From: a virus
Taxonomy: Duplodnaviria > Caudoviricetes
Direction: 5' to 3' (one strand)
DNA: 54,299 bases
IMG/VR virus record: IMGVR_UViG_3300038400_000028
Coordinates: 1 to 54,299 of that record
Position 1 is the first letter of the stretch. Every line of letters starts with the position of its first letter. The notes under the pieces were generated by a model. That model was given only the letters and a program-made list of their open reading frames with translations, did not search any database and was not told where the DNA came from. Positions 1,226-42,094 of this stretch are shown here, one piece after another. A program made the position numbers and the translations under genes.

Positions 1226-4200
1226 CTATCGCCTCGTTCGCTTAAATACATCAGCCCTTACCCCCGCCTCGTCGAGCGCCTTCTTGGCGCCGCGATAGCC
1301 GGCATCCTCGATCGCCTGCGCGTTCGTCGCGCCACGGGCATCAACCGAAATGCTGACCGTCGTGCCCGCCATCGCGAAATTCCCGGGCGAGCCGGCCAGG
1401 AGCGACGATGGCGCGGTCAGCCCCTGCCCACCTTGCCCAGGTGGTGGCTGCTGGGCGTTATTGATCTGCACCAGGAGATCATAGAGTTGCATCCAGATCG
1501 GGTTTTGGCCTGCGTCCGGCACGGCGTTGAGCACCGCCTGGAGCTGGTCTGCCAGTGCGCTGAGGCTATTATTATTGGTTATCTGCGAGCGTTCCCCAAA
1601 TGCCGCTTGCTCGGCCTGCTGCGCTTTCTGGATATCTGCGATCTGCTGGCTGATGCTATTGCGCTCGGTGTCCGTCTGCGCGGCCGCTAGGCCCTGCTGG
1701 AGCTTCGCCAGTTCAAAGATCTGGCTAGAGCGCATCTTGTAGAACTTCGCGGCTTGCTCGGGGTCATTCATCGCGGCGGCTACTTGCTCGGCCTCAGCCA
1801 GTTGCTGACGAAGAAGATCGCGGTGTGCCGCCGCTGTGACGGTCAATATGCCCCCGTCTGTCGTTTTCATCACGGCCGCGCCAATATCTTCGAGCGCCTT
1901 GGTGTTGCGTGCTTTTTGCCGATCAATACTCGCGGTCGCGTCGAACGCATCAGCGAGCGCTGAATGCACCCGATCGGGTAGCTCCTCCATAATGCTTGCC
2001 AGCGAGTCGACTAGGTCCTCAGCCTCCTTCTTGGCGTCCTCCGTCATGTCAGACATCGAGATGATCAGCTGTGTTGAGATCATCTGGATGCCTTCCAGCA
2101 GATCGGGCAGCATCCCCTCCAGGCCACCAAGCAGGCCGAGCATACTCATCTCACCGATGCCGGCAAACACCTGGGACGGCGAATGGATATCGAGTGCATC
2201 CGCCATCGTCCCGAGCATTTGATCGGCAGCACCTTGCATCGCGTCGATCGCACCCTGAAGGTGATCCTCGACCCCCTGGATCAGCCCCTCCATGATGTTC
2301 GTGCCGAGATCGGTCGCATCGTCCGGCGCGCTGCTCTCGCGCAACACCTCGCCGAACCTATCACCGGCGTCGCGCATCACATCGACGCCGCCGGTCGCTA
2401 CATCGGATAGGATGTTGTAGAAGGCATTGGCCGTGCTCGAAACGCCATCGATAATACCTTCGACGATCGGCACGCCGACCTCGTCGGCGAAGACCGATGA
2501 GGGAGAACTGATCCCGAGCGCATCCTTGGCCGACTGGAGCGCACCTGCGGCGAGGTTGCGCATGTAGCTGATGATCTGATCGCCGCCCGCTTTCAGTCCG
2601 TTCAGCAGGCCATTGATGATGTCGTTGCCGATCCCCGCCGATTTGCCGATCAGGCCATTCCAGATGCCAAGGATGAGATCGATCGTCGTATCGAAGGACG
2701 CCTTGATCAGCTGTAGCCCACCAGTGATGACCCCCAGGATATCGGTCACGAACCGTGCCGACATATCCTGGATCGTCTGCCAAGCACCCGACCAGTCACC
2801 GTTAATCGCCTGAAGCGCGGCAGTCAGGACGCCGCGAATCAGCGTCAGCGCGGCGTCGATTACGCTGCTGATGATCTGCCAGGCGCCACTGAAGGCGGCC
2901 TGTATCTCGGCGCCGTGGTCGTTGATAAACTGCGCGAGGAATTGGAGTGCGGGGACAACCGTAGCCTGAATCAACTGCATCGCCACCTGGATGATGTCAT
3001 TGATCTGGGTGTATATCTGGCCGGTAGTAGCCAGGATCTCATCACCGTGCGCCTGCCAAAAGGCGCTGATTTGCGCGAGAGCAGCGTTGATGACCTCGGC
3101 CAGCGGCTCGATAAGCGAGAGCACCGTATCATGGACGCTCTGCCAGGTCGTCTGCGCCTGACCGACCATCTCGGCGCCGTTCGCCTCAAAGTAGGCGATG
3201 ATGTCGCCCAGCACCTGGCTGACGAGCGCCTCGATCTGCGGCAAGGTTTCCTGAGCAACGCCATAGAGCAGGGCAAACGCAGGGCTGACCTCAGACAGAA
3301 CATTCAGAAAGCCTTCGATGGGGTTCGCGGCATCGGTGAAGGTCGCCGACAGCTCCCCGGCCAGGCCGGTAATCGCATCGCGCAGATCGAAGAGCGTCCC
3401 GATAATCGGGTCATCTTCCTGAAGACCAAAGATCCCGCCAGTGAAATCGCGGTTGAAGAAGATGTCAAAGAGGCCCTGCGCAGCGCTGGCAACGTCCTGG
3501 AATGTACCGACAAGTGGACTCAGATCCAGGCCAGTCATCTCGCGGATGTCGTCGAGTAGGACGCCCGTCCCACCGCCCTCGCTGAACGCATCATCGAACA
3601 ACCCGCCCAGCGTGACGACCGCATCGCCCAGCGTGTCGAAGATCGGCGAAACGCCATCCAGCCTGTAGAGCGCATTCGCTAACCCACCGATAGCCCCGCC
3701 ACCATTGGCCGCGCCCGTCTCAAAGGCTTGCACCAACTCGCCAAACCCTGCCGCGGCGCTCTCGACGATCGGCACGATCGTGTCGTTGAGGAAGCCGGCC
3801 AGGTCAGAAAGCAGCGGCAGCACGGCCGCGCCCATCGTCTCGGCCGCCTCGCCGAGTCGGTCATGGAACTGCGCCCAGCCGCCGTCTGCCTTTGCGGCTG
3901 CTTCGGCCTGCCCGCCAAATTCTTTGTTGAGCTCGTCGAGTACGAGCTTCTGGTATTCGGCGATGTGGCCGGTTTCAAACAGGCGCTTGCCCAGTTTCAG
4001 CTGCTCGTCGCTGAAACTGACGCCCTGGCGCTGGGCCGCCGACATCGCATCGGCGCTGTTGAGGATCTTGCCGACCATGATCGACATGTCTTCGGGCGTC
4101 TTCTTGAGCGCCTGGGCCATATCGACCGTGAGCACGGTCGCGAAGTCGAGCATCTCACCTTTGATATTCCCAAAGGTGAGCAGCATATTGGTTGCGGCCT

Positions 4201-4564
4201 GAACCTGGTCGTCACCGAAGAGGGATTTACCGGAAGCGGCTGAGAGAGAGGCAGCGAGGCTTTCGACGTGCTCGGCCGACACACCAGCCGCATTGCCCAT
4301 TGAGGTGATGGTCTGCTCGGTCTGGGCCATCACCAGCTGGTGTGCCCGCGCGTCGTCGATACCGCCCTTGAGCACGGCGCCGAACGCCACGACACCGGCA
4401 GCAGCGGCGGCCAGTCCGATCTTGAGCGCCCCGCTGATGATGTTGCCGATATGGGAGAAGCCGGATTCGGCACGCGCCTCGGCGTCGCTGATACCCTGGT
4501 CCAGGCCCTTCAGCGACACCTCGGTGCCGAGTACGGCGTTGCCTAGTGAGTCTTCGGCGGCCAT
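1226..4564 (-). CDS. Tape measure protein
   Basis: 1112 aa, Ala/Gly-rich helical, periodic W/F repeats, two ALxIxSPSxVF motifs, downstream of tail chaperones. Confidence 0.92.
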   Translation of the reverse strand: MAAEDSLGNAVLGTEVSLKGLDQGISDAEARAESGFSHIGNIISGALKIGLAAAAAGVVAFGAVLKGGIDDARAHQLVMAQTEQTITSMGNAAGVSAEHVESLAASLSAASGKSLFGDDQVQAATNMLLTFGNIKGEMLDFATVLTVDMAQALKKTPEDMSIMVGKILNSADAMSAAQRQGVSFSDEQLKLGKRLFETGHIAEYQKLVLDELNKEFGGQAEAAAKADGGWAQFHDRLGEAAETMGAAVLPLLSDLAGFLNDTIVPIVESAAAGFGELVQAFETGAANGGGAIGGLANALYRLDGVSPIFDTLGDAVVTLGGLFDDAFSEGGGTGVLLDDIREMTGLDLSPLVGTFQDVASAAQGLFDIFFNRDFTGGIFGLQEDDPIIGTLFDLRDAITGLAGELSATFTDAANPIEGFLNVLSEVSPAFALLYGVAQETLPQIEALVSQVLGDIIAYFEANGAEMVGQAQTTWQSVHDTVLSLIEPLAEVINAALAQISAFWQAHGDEILATTGQIYTQINDIIQVAMQLIQATVVPALQFLAQFINDHGAEIQAAFSGAWQIISSVIDAALTLIRGVLTAALQAINGDWSGAWQTIQDMSARFVTDILGVITGGLQLIKASFDTTIDLILGIWNGLIGKSAGIGNDIINGLLNGLKAGGDQIISYMRNLAAGALQSAKDALGISSPSSVFADEVGVPIVEGIIDGVSSTANAFYNILSDVATGGVDVMRDAGDRFGEVLRESSAPDDATDLGTNIMEGLIQGVEDHLQGAIDAMQGAADQMLGTMADALDIHSPSQVFAGIGEMSMLGLLGGLEGMLPDLLEGIQMISTQLIISMSDMTEDAKKEAEDLVDSLASIMEELPDRVHSALADAFDATASIDRQKARNTKALEDIGAAVMKTTDGGILTVTAAAHRDLLRQQLAEAEQVAAAMNDPEQAAKFYKMRSSQIFELAKLQQGLAAAQTDTERNSISQQIADIQKAQQAEQAAFGERSQITNNNSLSALADQLQAVLNAVPDAGQNPIWMQLYDLLVQINNAQQPPPGQGGQGLTAPSSLLAGSPGNFAMAGTTVSISVDARGATNAQAIEDAGYRGAKKALDEAGVRADVFKRTRR

Positions 4565-4662
4565 GCATGCGCTCGCGTGTCATATAACGCGGGCGCGAGG
4601 TGCGGCGGCGTTCGTCGGTGCGCGTGGGGCAGTACGCGCGACGCGCGCCGGAGGGGATTAGA

Positions 4663-37959: not shown

Positions 37960-38822
37960 CCGATTCACGCCTGACGGCCTATCTGAAAACAGCGCGCGAG
38001 CGACAGCATGCCTTTTATGCGCGCCAGGCGTTCCGCTTCGCCGCCCAGGCCGGCGACACGGCGGCGATGGAAGAGGCGATGGCACTCGGCGCGGTCGACT
38101 ACCAGCCGGAGCCAAACGTGTACAGCAGATATATACCCGGCGAGGAAAAGATGCTTGACCAGATCATCACCGGCGACGCGCGCGAGCTCGCGAAAGATAT
38201 CCCCGATTCGTCGGTGGATATGATTTTCACTGACCCGGTGTACGAAAATGTGGAGGATTACGCATGGCTGGCTGAGACTGCTGCGCGTGTCCTGAAACCG
38301 GAGAAAGCCTGCTTGGTTTGGTGTAGCAGCGTGAAACAGTACGAAGTACAGCCGCTCATGCGAAAGCACCTTACCTTTGTCCTACAGCTGACGTACACGA
38401 AGGTCGCGAAAGCCTACAAGGTGTGGGGCTATAAAACCTTCCTCTGGACCACGCCATGCCTGTGGTTTCAGAAGGACGGTGATCACTTCCACGCGGACCA
38501 CGAGTGGCTGATCGATAGTGTGCTGGACTATGGCAATGCGATCACCAGCACGGCGACGCCGCCCGCAAAAACCCATAAGTGGCACAAGAACCCGGAGGCA
38601 TATAGCTACTGGCTACAGCGCTTTACGAGACCCGGGGATGTGGTGTGGGACCCGTTCACCGGCAGCGGGTCGCTGCCACTCGTTTGCTTAGAGCACGGCC
38701 GGCACTTCATCGCCTCCGAGATCGTGCCGGAGATCGCTGATCAGGCCCGCGCCCGCATCGCGCAGGTGCAGAGCCAGACGCGGATGCCGCTGATCGAACA
38801 ATACGCAATGGAGCTGACATGA
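37956..38822 (+). CDS. Beta-class amino DNA methyltransferase (alternative start 38151)
   Basis: SVDMIFTDPVY...HKWHKNP...VWDPFTGSGS. Confidence 0.88.
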   Translation: MTDSRLTAYLKTARERQHAFYARQAFRFAAQAGDTAAMEEAMALGAVDYQPEPNVYSRYIPGEEKMLDQIITGDARELAKDIPDSSVDMIFTDPVYENVEDYAWLAETAARVLKPEKACLVWCSSVKQYEVQPLMRKHLTFVLQLTYTKVAKAYKVWGYKTFLWTTPCLWFQKDGDHFHADHEWLIDSVLDYGNAITSTATPPAKTHKWHKNPEAYSYWLQRFTRPGDVVWDPFTGSGSLPLVCLEHGRHFIASEIVPEIADQARARIAQVQSQTRMPLIEQYAMELT

Positions 38823-38898
38823 TCGCCACAACGTCCATCATCACATCCCTGCTAGGCGCCCATGCCCCGGTGGCGATCGGCGTTTCGGGGATGGTGCT

Positions 38899-40149
38899 GT
38901 GAAAACATTTCGCACCCTCTTCTCTGGCGGCGAGTTGTTTGGTGCGGGCGCTCGCGCGGCTGGCTGGCAGCACCTCGACGGCTATGAGATCGATGAGCGT
39001 ATCGCCGCCGTGGCGCGCCTGAACGGTTTCGACGTGCGAACGATTGATGTATGCCAGGTCGATTACGACAGTCTGCCGCCAGCCGACCACTTGCACGCCT
39101 CGCCCAGCTGCAAGCACGCCAGCCAGGCCAATACACAGGCTGGTGAGACCGACGAGGACCGGACGGCGGCCGACGCCGTGTGCCGGGCTGTTCGAGCGCA
39201 CCAGGGCGCGACGGTGTCGCTCGAAAACGTTTGGGGCTACCGCACCTTCGAGTCGTTTCGGCGCATCCTGGCTACGTTGAAGGCGTGTGGTTTCGTCGTC
39301 GACTTTCGCCACATCAACGCAGCTGATTACGGCGTCCCGCAGACCCGCAAGCGTCTGATCCTGCGCGCTGTCCGAGGCTCGGGCCGCGTGCCGCCGCTGC
39401 ACCCGACGCACCGCAAAGGCGGCGATATGTTCCATGCGCCCTGGATCGGGTGGTACGCGGCAATTGCCGACCTCATCCCGACGCTGCCAGCGACGGAGCT
39501 GGCCCCCTGGCAGCTGGCGCGGCTGCCCGCGGAACTGCGCGAGACGATGTTGTTGAGCGGCGCAATGGCGAACGGCGCCGATGTTGTTACTAGATCGGTC
39601 GATGAACCCGCTGTGACGGTTGTGGCGGCAGAAATAACTAAAATGCCCGTGCGCGCGTACCTCATCGGTTCGGGCGGCTATAACGGGCTCGTCACGCAGC
39701 GGCTGCGTGACGAGCCCTGCTTCACCGTGACATCCACGCATGAGTCCCAGGTGATACGTGCGCTCCTTGTCCAAAGCAAGAACACAAGCCAGGAGTGGGG
39801 TGATGGCTATTGGGTAGACGAGCAGCCGGCGCCGACCGTCGTAAGCGATCACAAACCCAGCCACATGCCGCGCGCCTACCTGCTCGATGGCGACAACGCG
39901 CGTGCCGATACGGGCGAGCAGCTCGCCCGTATCGGCACAGAGCCAGCCATGACGCTCCGCGGCTCGCGCACGACCGCCCAGCGCGCTTACGTCGGTCGCT
40001 GGGTCAGGCTTACGGTGCGGGCCCTCGGCCGTTTCCAGACCGTGCCGGATAGCTACGTCAGCCTGACCGCCGAGATCAATGGGAACGCTGTTCCTCCGCT
40101 TCTTGCTCAACGGATAATGGAATCTTTGTTACCCGCGTACGAACGTTAG
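38899..40149 (+). CDS. C5 cytosine DNA methyltransferase
   Basis: LFSGG, HASPSC, LENV, YGVPQTRKR, RFQTVPD, GNAVPP. Confidence 0.9.
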   Translation: MKTFRTLFSGGELFGAGARAAGWQHLDGYEIDERIAAVARLNGFDVRTIDVCQVDYDSLPPADHLHASPSCKHASQANTQAGETDEDRTAADAVCRAVRAHQGATVSLENVWGYRTFESFRRILATLKACGFVVDFRHINAADYGVPQTRKRLILRAVRGSGRVPPLHPTHRKGGDMFHAPWIGWYAAIADLIPTLPATELAPWQLARLPAELRETMLLSGAMANGADVVTRSVDEPAVTVVAAEITKMPVRAYLIGSGGYNGLVTQRLRDEPCFTVTSTHESQVIRALLVQSKNTSQEWGDGYWVDEQPAPTVVSDHKPSHMPRAYLLDGDNARADTGEQLARIGTEPAMTLRGSRTTAQRAYVGRWVRLTVRALGRFQTVPDSYVSLTAEINGNAVPPLLAQRIMESLLPAYER

Positions 40150-40705
40150 GGGTGGTACCGGCATGTTTATTGACAGTGCGCTCCATATAGGAGGACATTT
40201 TTCTTTTGATATGGTTGCGGGGTCTTTTCCCCTCGTAGTATGTTCCTGCGCAGATCATGTTGATACTCGACGGACTAAGCCCGAAGGTTATGGCAATCTC
40301 TCTTGTTGGCGCACCCTGTCTTTTCATTTCGCGAATTTGCTGGTTGCGCTCAGTCATGGCGTTCCGAATTGCATAAGCCATTTCAATGCGTTGAATAGCC
40401 TCTTTTGCTTTTTCCTGCTTGATAACAAGGAATGGCAGCAGTTTTATCAGGACAGTATAAACATCATCGTAATTGCGAACACGCCAGACGTATTTCGTTT
40501 TCCATTCAGCTTTCATATAGGTAATTTCCTCCACACAACCAAGCTGGAGTTTATCGTGAATACCCATAATAACCGCACGGTTTGTGTTTGCAATGGTAAG
40601 GTCAACCGAGTGTTGTTGTTTGATCTTCAGATAGATACAGCCCTCTCCGTCCATAAAGCCAGCCAGCCAAGTGATGAATTGGTCGTCAGTCCATGTATCA
40701 AACAT
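40076..40705 (-). CDS. Free-standing LAGLIDADG homing endonuclease plus HTH
   Basis: WLAGFMDGEGCI, LLPFLVIKQE; AGGAG RBS; low GC; antisense to the operon. Confidence 0.9.
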   Translation of the reverse strand: MFDTWTDDQFITWLAGFMDGEGCIYLKIKQQHSVDLTIANTNRAVIMGIHDKLQLGCVEEITYMKAEWKTKYVWRVRNYDDVYTVLIKLLPFLVIKQEKAKEAIQRIEMAYAIRNAMTERNQQIREMKRQGAPTREIAITFGLSPSSINMICAGTYYEGKRPRNHIKRKMSSYMERTVNKHAGTTPNVRTRVTKIPLSVEQEAEEQRSH

Positions 40706-40780
40706 GATGTGCTCCTGTGTGTGCAAAGAAGTAAGTTGTTGTCGGTACCGTTAATTATAGCATGTTTCGCACATTTGTTC
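40081..40780. mobile_element. LAGLIDADG element supplying a replacement MTase 3' end
   Basis: NAVPPLLAQRIMESL before and NGVSCLLAQRIMESLR* after the AT-rich insert. Confidence 0.8.
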
Positions 40781-40782
40781 AA
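40754..40782 (-). promoter_or_regulatory. LAGLIDADG gene promoter
   Basis: TTGAAC-17 nt-TATAAT with extended TG. Confidence 0.7.
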
Positions 40783-40831
40783 CGGCGTAAGTTGCCTGCT
40801 CGCCCAGCGGATTATGGAGAGTCTACGATGA
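40781..40831 (+). pseudogene. Displaced original 3' end of the C5 MTase
   Basis: NGVSCLLAQRIMESLR*; its stop overlaps (ATGA) the next gene. Confidence 0.8.
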
Positions 40832-41130
40832 CCCAACCCGACACCGACTCCATCCGCCGCATGCTCGACGACGGCACGCCGATCCCGCCGTGGATCGTGC
40901 GCGGGCTGTGCGACAGAGTAGAGCAGTGCGAAAACGTGATGTCACAGGTAGCTCGCCTGACCCAGGAGGTGCAAACGGATCTGCGTCAGTTTGAAACCGC
41001 GATACGGCCAGAGCTAGGCGCGCTTTTGTGCCTGCTCGCTGCCGCACGCGCCTGGGACGATGCGGTGGAGCGCTGTGACGGCATCGTGGCGGCTGAGGAG
41101 CGACTGCGAGAGGCACTGAGGGGGCTATGA
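40828..41130 (+). CDS. Hypothetical protein
   Basis: ATGA coupling. Confidence 0.6.
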   Translation: MTQPDTDSIRRMLDDGTPIPPWIVRGLCDRVEQCENVMSQVARLTQEVQTDLRQFETAIRPELGALLCLLAAARAWDDAVERCDGIVAAEERLREALRGL

Positions 41131-41834
41131 CGATTGCACTCCGACTCGCCGACCGCGCCGGCGCCGAATGGGCACAGCGCCAGGTCGCGGCGCATCACTA
41201 CCTACATGCGCCGGTTGACCCGCGTAGCCGGCCGCTCGTCTACATCGTACAACTCATCGCACCGAAAGTTGATCGACCGATCGGCTGCCTAATTTTCGGC
41301 AGGCCGGAGGCCACACGCTGCTACGATGGCGCGCTGACCTACGGTTCATCGGCTGATATTCAGGACGGTCGTGCTCGGTTTGACCGCTGGGAGGTGCTGA
41401 ACCTGGCGCGCGTCTGGTTTGATCCTTGTGTGCAGCAGCCGGGCTATCTCTATCACAATCCCGCCTATCTACCGGGCTTCTATGATCGGCACTACACTTT
41501 TCGCTCCACACTGGCCAGCGCGGTCATTGCCCAAGCGCTCTCTCGTGTGGGCCACGACTATTTGACCGCGCATCCGCCGGTCGATTGTGCCTATCCGTAC
41601 CAGATCAAGGCCGTGCTGAGTTACTGCGATCGGCGGCAACATAAAGGCACCATTTACCGTGCTGCTGGCTTTGAGTTGGCGCGCACGAACGAGCGCCAGA
41701 TCGAAACGTGGTACACGATCGCCGTGGCGCCGCTGTCGCCCGAGCAGGATGCCGATATCCGCCACCTATCCGAGACTTCGCAACGTTCGCAGCGCATTCG
41801 CGGCCGGCGAACGCAATTGGAGCTAGGGCTATGA
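41127..41834 (+). CDS. Mom-like DNA modification protein
   Basis: HHYLH, IFGRP, NLARVW, VLSYCD..HKGTIYRAAGF. Confidence 0.75.
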   Translation: MTIALRLADRAGAEWAQRQVAAHHYLHAPVDPRSRPLVYIVQLIAPKVDRPIGCLIFGRPEATRCYDGALTYGSSADIQDGRARFDRWEVLNLARVWFDPCVQQPGYLYHNPAYLPGFYDRHYTFRSTLASAVIAQALSRVGHDYLTAHPPVDCAYPYQIKAVLSYCDRRQHKGTIYRAAGFELARTNERQIETWYTIAVAPLSPEQDADIRHLSETSQRSQRIRGRRTQLELGL

Positions 41835-42094
41835 GCCGCACGCCGCCGACCAGCCAGACGACGATGAGCCGTGTGAAGCAGCTCGCCTGCCTGAAGCGCC
41901 AGATCGATCTCGCCGAACTGCAACGCACGGTCTATGTGCGACGCGCGACGAGTGAGACCGAACCCGAGAGCGCCTTTGAGTGGTCGCTGCGGGTCGGGGT
42001 GGCCGATGCTGATCTGCTCCGGCTGCGCACCGAGTGGCTCGCAATCAAGCTGGCGCTGTGTGCCTGGCAAGCGCGGCGGAAGAAGAAGGTATAA
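41831..42094 (+). CDS. Hypothetical protein
   Basis: ATGA coupling. Confidence 0.55.
   Translation: MSRTPPTSQTTMSRVKQLACLKRQIDLAELQRTVYVRRATSETEPESAFEWSLRVGVADADLLRLRTEWLAIKLALCAWQARRKKKV

Follow-up and report, generated by a model that had tools for sequence, protein, structure and literature searches.

The complete virus genome recorded in IMG/VR as IMGVR_UViG_3300038400_000028, 54,299 bp long with direct terminal repeats (below, the window, meaning this whole stretch of DNA), carries a gene for a C5 DNA methyltransferase (MTase) whose 3' end is present twice, on either side of a low-GC insert that contains a LAGLIDADG homing endonuclease gene on the opposite strand. We propose that this insert is probably an end-replacing, free-standing homing cassette established at motif X of the phage C5 MTase. 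Because the cassette replaces the end of the gene that it enters, neither an intron nor an intein is needed.

Two ends of one methyltransferase gene

The MTase open reading frame (ORF) extends from 38899 to 40149 on the plus strand, matches the Pfam family DNA_methylase (PF00145, E 2.7e-25) and ends in AEINGNAVPPLLAQRIMESLLPAYER before its stop codon. Judging from the ORF and the PF00145 match, its host part reaches from 38899 to 40083, up to the Gly codon of motif X (GN). Positions 40084 to 40149 read as a replacement 3' end, NAVPPLLAQRIMESLLPAYER, followed by a TAG (40147-49) that closes the MTase frame within the cassette. The cassette itself occupies 697 nucleotides (nt), from 40083 to 40779, and splits motif X between GN and xV. 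Its GC content is 0.448 compared with 0.607 for the whole window; along the sequence, GC stays at 0.40-0.50 over about 40080-40790 and at 0.58-0.73 in the flanks. AACG occurs at each junction (40084-87 and 40781-84), and so the boundary can be placed only to within a few bases. Directly to the right of the insert, at 40781 to 40831 on the plus strand, stand 16 codons that we read as the stranded original MTase 3' end, NGVSCLLAQRIMESLR and its stop; this TGA (40829-31) overlaps the ATG (40828) of the next ORF in the form ATGA. The next gene of the operon (40828 to 41130, plus strand, 100 residues) belongs to no Pfam family. An earlier note on this DNA had reported duplicate, differently coded MTase ends around a low-GC insert of about 700 bp, with the second end still ATGA-coupled, and all of this can indeed be read in the sequence.

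The two ends agree at 12 of 15 residues, nine of these 12 being spelled by different codons, and at only 27 of 45 nucleotides. GC at third codon positions is 0.41 in the replacement end versus 0.77 in the MTase body. Comparison with the complete genome of a related phage (L002; 53,334 bp, MTase identity 51%) gives the direction of the change. The 90 nt upstream of the junction are identical to L002 at 74 positions and the old end at 35 of 45, whereas the new end matches at 28 of 45 only; the displaced end is therefore the native one and the attached end is foreign. The original 16-codon end lying downstream is unused by the MTase. A generic comparison of peptides from flank to flank gave the window a score of 50, against a mean of 32.9 for mismatched flank pairs (standard deviation 5.8, 95th percentile 43.5, maximum 59). 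This test is by itself modest, and the weight rests on the duplicate lying exactly at the junctions and on the existence of empty alleles.

Empty and occupied alleles

The earlier note had proposed relatives with an empty allele as a check on homing. In L002 the MTase has a single uninterrupted end, SEINGNGVPCLLAQRIMESLP followed by the stop (INGNGVPCLLAQRIMESLP with its stop), ATGA-coupled to the next gene. The possibility that relatives lacking the endonuclease nevertheless carry both ends does not apply to L002, which has one end only. The endonuclease family was found in neither of the two complete records G001 and G002 (from L002 and L088), the window itself being matched at E 9.5e-144, and a LAGLIDADG-type motif in none of 80 IMG/VR relatives of the MTase. 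At E<=1e-10 the MTase has 1187 homologues, and most of the 120 best end 14-17 residues past GN.

Metagenome contigs were aligned to the window at a likeness of at least 85%, and the stretch proved to be present in three soil-metagenome runs from three studies (X1, X2 and X3). Run X1, which may be the source of the window, gave only short pieces below 95% likeness. In run X2, from another study, a 43.7-kb contig covers 38808-42104 including the cassette, with 186 differences and 8 gaps; this cassette-bearing relative is about 94% identical. Run X3 contains both states. One contig passes from 40087 to 40793 through 8 other letters, which amounts to 697 nt lost overall and restores NGNGVACL across the joint; three more join 40082 to 40780 (skipping 697), 40004 to 40796 and 40004 to 40797, the letters between being not known. 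Pieces of occupied junctions are present in this run as well, 40061-40271 with one difference and 40466-40788 with none. At the one readable X3 joint, presence or absence of the cassette falls at the predicted point.

Related arrangements at other methyltransferases

Only five members of the endonuclease family were found among 28 candidates drawn from an index of 5.8 billion proteins, and the closest homologues (P0002-P0004) are 65-69% identical. A single-protein endonuclease scan of IMG/VR returned 9 pattern matches with no relative among them. Alignment scans collected 37 loci from IMG/VR, 4 from genomes and 43 from metagenomes, of which only L040, L041 and L044 form an MTase-associated subfamily; the overall protein identity of these three DNA-level homologues is 35-37%. 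An opposite-strand motif X within 1.5 kb was detected for 2 of 81 other motif copies, L041 being found by eye.

L040, from a Bacillota metagenome-assembled genome (MAG), reproduces the layout of the window. The homologue, 37% identical overall (best segment 42%), lies backwards after an 832-residue C5 MTase (PF00145, E 1.3e-27). This MTase has a new end, GNAIPVRMAAALVQAILSEKGDCE before the stop, and a stranded old end, AVPVRTATALVLSMLGER with its stop, is situated beyond the endonuclease gene and directly before a PAPS-reductase-like gene. The new and old ends agree at 29 of 54 nt and 10 of 18 residues. L044, a 1-kb contig, shows the convergent arrangement of MTase and endonuclease at GNSVPPQMADAVV (GNSVPP and onwards to the stop); its old end is tentatively read as SVIPNLSIRRSL. 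The earlier note had proposed to look for the same endonuclease with replacement ends in other MTases; homologues lie backwards at the ends of C5 MTases in L040 and L044, in the former with both a replacement and a stranded end. In L041 (Acidobacteria MAG, 3833-4640), the MTase is cut down to its first 15 codons, ending in motif I (MTSIRAVDLFCGAGG). Without change of frame, these codons continue into the strand opposite the endonuclease gene and on into an old MTase end, which shares an ATGA with a helicase gene, as if an in-frame deletion had taken place after invasion.

Traces of the same association are also visible in MTase proteins. In the window, the conserved endonuclease block VRT.VTKIP is encoded opposite MESLLPAYER of the MTase. 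As the conserved end of the endonuclease is thus written opposite the last codons of the new MTase end, the odd LPAYER extension of the MTase is a shadow of the endonuclease C-terminus. The tails of three other MTases, 48-61% identical overall (P0019, P0036 and P0091), can encode VRT[RQE][VT][TI]KIP on the other strand. Counting the window, tails that encode the endonuclease block in the register of the window occur in 4 of the 120 best MTase homologues versus 0 of 41,507 internal windows. For P0036 and for the endonuclease homologue P0002 alike, the longest contig of origin measures 7,434 nt.

These loci also bear on an alternative, a one-off patchwork in which the endonuclease gene is an ordinary free-standing gene with its normal place after an MTase gene, and in which one illegitimate or short-homology recombination between diverged phages accidentally left two ends. 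Phage genomes are mosaic, the genes downstream differ between the window and L002, the X3 relatives differ nearby by gains and losses of whole genes, and the old end of L044 is not in the register of the stop-free frame described below. All this would suit such an accident. It leaves unexplained that a replacement and a stranded end at motif X recur in L040, at a different MTase and with a distant homologue, that L044 repeats the convergent arrangement, that three more MTases have tails fitting an antisense endonuclease end, and that the junction is precise to the codon. We consider the patchwork quite improbable.

About 14 further MTase homologues (P0013, P0021, P0040, P0049, P0050, P0061, P0064, P0076, P0087, P0097, P0111 and others) end in ESLRG[VC]Y plus further residues. 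These tails, of the RG[VC]Y type as read by eye, are not codon-compatible with the C-terminus of this endonuclease; they may reflect a second invading element or a natural tail. In another MTase homologue, P0032, the sequence QINGVACLLAQRIMESLRGCYDSIS is without the motif X GN, precisely where the insertion point lies, and this loss may be a repair scar.

The endonuclease

The homing endonuclease gene occupies 40076 to 40705 on the minus strand and encodes 209 residues, with its ATG at 40705 and its TGA (40078-40076) placed in host sequence just left of the junction. The protein has a single LAGLIDADG motif, WLAGFMDGEG, at residues 13-22, and all 8 homologues have its D19, G20, E21 and G22 unchanged; the catalytic residue of the motif we take, by analogy with I-CreI, to be the corresponding acidic one. 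A profile of the eight homologues compared with the PDB retrieves I-CreI, I-CvuI, I-MsoI and I-OnuI (best E 4.9e-11), matching I-CreI over residues 5-111 at E about 2e-5. LAGLIDADG_3 is passed by the homologues of L040, L041 and L044 (27.3, 23.2 and 31.7 compared with a cut-off of 22.5).

The AlphaFold model (predicted local distance difference test, pLDDT, 79.9) displays an alpha-beta-beta-alpha-beta-beta-alpha core in residues 7-92, with helices at 7-21, 43-53 and 79-92 and strands at 22-27, 33-40, 57-63 and 71-76; a long helix and then a helix-turn-helix (134-153) follow this nuclease core. The top Foldseek matches of the model are I-CreI and I-CvuI (E 3e-7, probability 1.00), with target-normalized TM scores of 0.53-0.62 (I-CreI 0.58), and identity to enzymes of the I-CreI/I-CvuI/I-MsoI type in the structural alignments is 16-24%. 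Modelled as a homodimer, the protein scores 0.62, the best of 3 controls reaching 0.00; contacts agree at 100% and the partner pLDDT is at least 87. In calibration, 20 of the 30 paired proteins and 1 of the 23 single-chain ones came up to the mark for this score. The modelled interface is formed by the LAGLIDADG helix (residues 8-21, 40-45 and 92-95), and the good dimer score may reflect likeness to solved I-CreI dimers. On these models and profiles, the protein is an I-CreI-like LAGLIDADG endonuclease for which site-specific cleavage is predicted.

The 74 nt from 40076 to 40149 are read on both strands, as the C-terminus of the endonuclease and as the new MTase end. The earlier note had supposed dual coding over about the last 24 codons of the endonuclease. 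The overlap is there, but only the conserved part of the protein, down to KIP at residue 196, needs to overlap; the last 13 residues are unconserved with pLDDT below 50, and these codons, absent from P0004 and from the L040 homologue, look incidental. Upstream of the endonuclease gene, the sequence can be read as an AGGAG ribosome-binding site 6 nt before the ATG (40712 to 40716, minus strand) and a sigma-70-like promoter-like site (40754 to 40782, minus strand). The latter comprises TTGAAC (40782-40777), a spacer of 17 nt and TATAAT (40759-40754), with TG before the -10 box and 10 of 12 matches. The region contains 3 promoter-like sites, compared with 1.0 +/- 1.2 in shuffles. The -35 box does span the right junction as had been remarked, three bases falling in the insert and three in host sequence; this straddling looks incidental, and a scan of L040 gave no promoter-like site, a promoter read there by eye having been rejected since it did not satisfy the scan.

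Weighing the homing model

We infer cleavage, cut position, immunity of the occupied allele and route of repair along the following lines. In a mixed infection, the endonuclease homodimer would cut the uninterrupted MTase allele at GG AAC GG, between GG and AAC. The break would then be repaired from the occupied genome, with the MTase body as left arm and the stranded old end as right arm, and this repair would copy the cassette into the empty allele. The recoded new end would mismatch the right half of the site, so that the occupied allele would be immune. An intron-less homing cassette at motif X bringing a recoded C-terminus had been put forward in the earlier note, and it gains support from L002, from the X3 joint and from L040 and L044.

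Several observations count against it. The layout is seen at the DNA level only with homologues of 41-43% best-segment identity, and L041 fits a simple cassette model poorly and is a degenerate case. The empty-allele contigs of X3 have sides of 30-42 letters and belong to related phages that are not provably the same strain, and at three of the four joints the intervening letters are not known. The right homology arm would shrink to about 50 nt wherever the genes further downstream are different, which is the case for the window and L002. The endonuclease is single-copy in this genome, its match to Pfam LAGLIDADG_1 (E 5.6e-4, 21.2 bits) is under the cut-off of 23.1, and its homologue P0003 is named a CsgD-family regulator by a JGI source.

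The last two points, together with the helix-turn-helix after the nuclease core, seen in the window model and as HTH_7 in the L040 homologue (E 1e-8), could suggest a domesticated or dead element, namely a helix-turn-helix regulator of modification genes that no longer cuts, or a gene in decay. Yet the motif and its acidic residue are invariant in all eight homologues, the ORF is intact in every copy seen, and presence or absence of the cassette is polymorphic among close soil relatives. Moreover, free-standing homing endonucleases usually carry extra DNA-binding domains, which counts against domestication as well. We regard a domesticated or dead element as very improbable.

A stop-free frame opposite the endonuclease

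On the MTase strand, one frame crosses the cassette without stops. Codon-for-codon opposite the endonuclease, this frame is open from 40118; as an ORF of 222 codons it goes from 40163 to 40831 on the plus strand and ends at the old MTase stop. Its ATG (40163) is situated 14 nt past the new stop, with GGGGTGG 7 nt before it. The remaining two frames on that strand are interrupted by 9 and 16 stops. The codon-aligned frame is open over the whole endonuclease gene in L040, L041 and L044 too. Its start codon in L040 and L044 would be a GTG sharing bases with the MTase TGA (GTGA), and AAGGAG or AGGAGG precedes it at a spacing of 7 nt. The frame continues into the old end in the window, L040 and L041, where its stop lies at or next to the start of the following gene; in L044 it stops earlier, out of frame with the tentative old end.

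We propose, with slightly less than an even chance, that this frame is a purpose-built 'ribosome relay', for which codons reading as stops on the host strand were selected out, with a restart at the new MTase stop and read-through to the old one. Ribosomes leaving the MTase would restart at the start codon at or near the new stop, behind the run resembling a ribosome-binding site, translate a nonsense protein of 222-290 codons over the insert and terminate at the old stop, whose overlap or contact with the start of the next gene would pass them on to it. If this is true, a 0.7-kb antisense insert in a coupled operon would cause neither Rho-dependent polarity nor loss of translational coupling.

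That the frame has no present function, its openness coming from codon bias or being inherited from an ancestor that sat in a read-through insertion, has about an even chance. TTA, CTA and TCA are rare codons in GC-rich hosts, the hosts here are GC-rich, and the codon-aligned antisense frame is generally the most open one. Tests of stop avoidance gene by gene are weak (P = 0.03, 0.004 and 0.04; Poisson values 0.006-0.20, or 0.006-0.41 in the comparison by orientation), and the L044 frame ends before the presumed old end is finished. In 56 further distinct LAGLIDADG genes, the codon-aligned frame is free of stops in 2 and contains at most one in 4. The comparison by orientation speaks for selection: with normalisation for third-position composition, the observed/expected ratio of TTA+CTA+TCA has a median of 0.27 in 8 'opposite' genes versus 1.04 in 32 'same' genes (Mann-Whitney P = 7e-5; 7e-4 when one gene alone stands for the MTase subfamily), on a small sample with crude orientation calls. 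Orientation was called from flanking ORFs for 60 rows, L044 being placed by inspection, and 20 were dropped (three near-duplicates of L009, the mixed L067, L036 and 15 ambiguous or unknown). Openness without selection should also have decayed at 35-37% overall protein identity. Finally, all three frames with a visible beginning start behind a G- or purine-rich run plus 7 nt, and two of the three overlap the new stop (GTGA).

The stop-free frame could also recall a self-splicing group I intron or an intein with its endonuclease on the other strand, antisense LAGLIDADG genes inside inteins being described in bioRxiv 10.1101/2025.01.02.630785. Against this, a TAG within the cassette closes the MTase frame, which is not the stop-free one; no Rfam family matches 39500-41500 at E<=1, and a Pfam search of the stop-free frames in the window, L040, L044 and L041 found no family, intein/Hint domains included. 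We rejected this explanation, whose probability is negligible.

Comparison with known systems

The end-replacing homing cassette proposed here has its nearest parallels in fungi. In the 'gene hybrids' made by fungal mitochondrial mORFs (atp6 of Allomyces macrogynus; atp6, atp9, cox2 and nad3 of Glomus), as described in PMC3630166, a LAGLIDADG or GIY-YIG gene arrives with a foreign C-terminal part and the native C-terminus is left downstream, as in our case. According to the same paper, inserted ends resemble those of relatives at 64-81% and native ends at 91-98%, to be compared here with 28/45 and 35/45 nt. The setting there is an organelle, and the endonuclease ORF shares the strand of the host gene and often its phase (PMC3630166). 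The cassette, by contrast, has its endonuclease on the opposite strand, with its own bacterial-type promoter-like site and a tail-to-tail overlap with the new end, in a phage operon with stop/start overlaps and opposite a stop-free host-strand frame.

The second parallel is provided by WHO elements at the FBA1 gene of yeasts (Coughlan et al. 2020, eLife, PMC7282813). In these elements, the 3' end of the target is replaced at each integration, the unit consists of an endonuclease gene plus a resistant end, the new end gives resistance and the displaced 3' fragment is a recombination arm. WHO proteins are described there as intein-derived, zinc-finger-bearing and double-domain, in a eukaryotic nucleus and in tandem clusters (PMC7282813). 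Unlike them, the cassette has a single small I-CreI-like antisense gene in a phage, with no cluster of older fragments seen.

Closer to phages, the ShiLan 'hidden HNH' insertion lies in actinobacteriophage DNA methylases (Arsenault, Gosselin & Gogarten 2025, PMC11855218). In ShiLan and the antisense-intein genes (PMC11855218; bioRxiv 10.1101/2025.01.02.630785), an off-frame or off-strand endonuclease also lies inside a gene with the host frame free of stops, and translation of the host protein crosses the insert, which forms a loop or an intein. In the window, in contrast, the MTase stops at 40147-49 and an ORF in a separate frame (40163-40831) would restart and re-join the old end.

I-CreI, I-CvuI and I-MsoI share with the endonuclease of the window the single motif, the core fold and, as predicted here, a dimer through the motif helix. 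They are intron-encoded in algal organelle rRNA genes, whereas the enzyme here is free-standing, with a long helix and a helix-turn-helix added. Literature searches on end replacement in phages, and on antisense or polarity arguments, turned up no published case but did lead to the ShiLan paper and the antisense-intein preprint.

Genomic surroundings and other LAGLIDADG genes

From about 30 to 48 kb of the window the long ORFs are on the plus strand, several with overlapping stop and start codons. The MTase has an N6/N4 methylase gene on one side and, two genes on, a Mom-like gene (41127-41834; PF25680, E 8.6e-7). This Mom-like gene is absent from some X3 relatives, their contigs joining 41121 to 41826, 41130 to 41852, 41131 to 41851 and 41186 to 41793. 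One X3 contig joins 38771 to 40845, that is, across window positions 38771-40845, and some relatives seem to be without the whole C5 MTase and cassette, between the N6/N4 methylase gene and the next gene. A blastn search with 38899-41130 found no match among GenBank phages.

Other LAGLIDADG loci from the scans were inspected for duplicated gene ends. The flank-duplication scores of L073, L019, L056 and L079 came from tRNA-gene-like translations and those of L065, L063 and L041 from low-complexity matches; they were set aside, none being a gene-end duplicate. The flanks of the small LAGLIDADG genes in L073, L019, L056 and L079 give GLEP/GFEP-type peptides typical of tRNA T-arms, and these genes probably lie inside tRNA gene clusters. 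In L051 (2792-3522), and also in L052, a backwards LAGLIDADG gene is found at the start of an FtsH-like gene; in L051 the FtsH-like N-terminus is duplicated on either side, as LAIVLYIYRWFNRHRTIRF and LAIGLYIWRFIGRHKTIRT. Both loci look like a replacement of the 5' end. L027 (3704-4747) has a LAGLIDADG gene of 226 codons (GC 0.48) backwards inside an N6/N4 DNA methylase gene; the host-strand frame is stop-free and fused to the N-terminal part of the methylase (PF01555, E 9e-11), the C-terminal part being in another frame. In L036 (167-2583), two double-motif LAGLIDADG genes of 303 and 308 codons (GC about 0.39) flank a short minus-strand gene, their opposite-strand frames are fully open (308 and 355 codons) and no Pfam intein domain was found.

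Significance

The homing cassette at motif X widens the range of end-replacing homing from the mitochondria of fungi and the nuclei of yeasts to soil-bacterial phages and, among enzymes, to small ones of the I-CreI type. It accounts for the odd C-terminal extensions and the mosaic 3' ends of some phage methyltransferases. It also points to artefacts of which annotation should beware, namely a stranded gene fragment, a spurious ORF of 222 codons and an endonuclease that one source calls a regulator. The relay, if true, would unite two strategies described separately, end replacement and a stop-free host frame; it would show a way for a selfish insertion to spare a translationally coupled operon with no splicing involved, and so provide a principle of phage gene expression as well as a design rule for the insertion of cargo into operons. 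The endonuclease family may represent natural meganucleases directed against the most conserved coding block of C5 methyltransferases.

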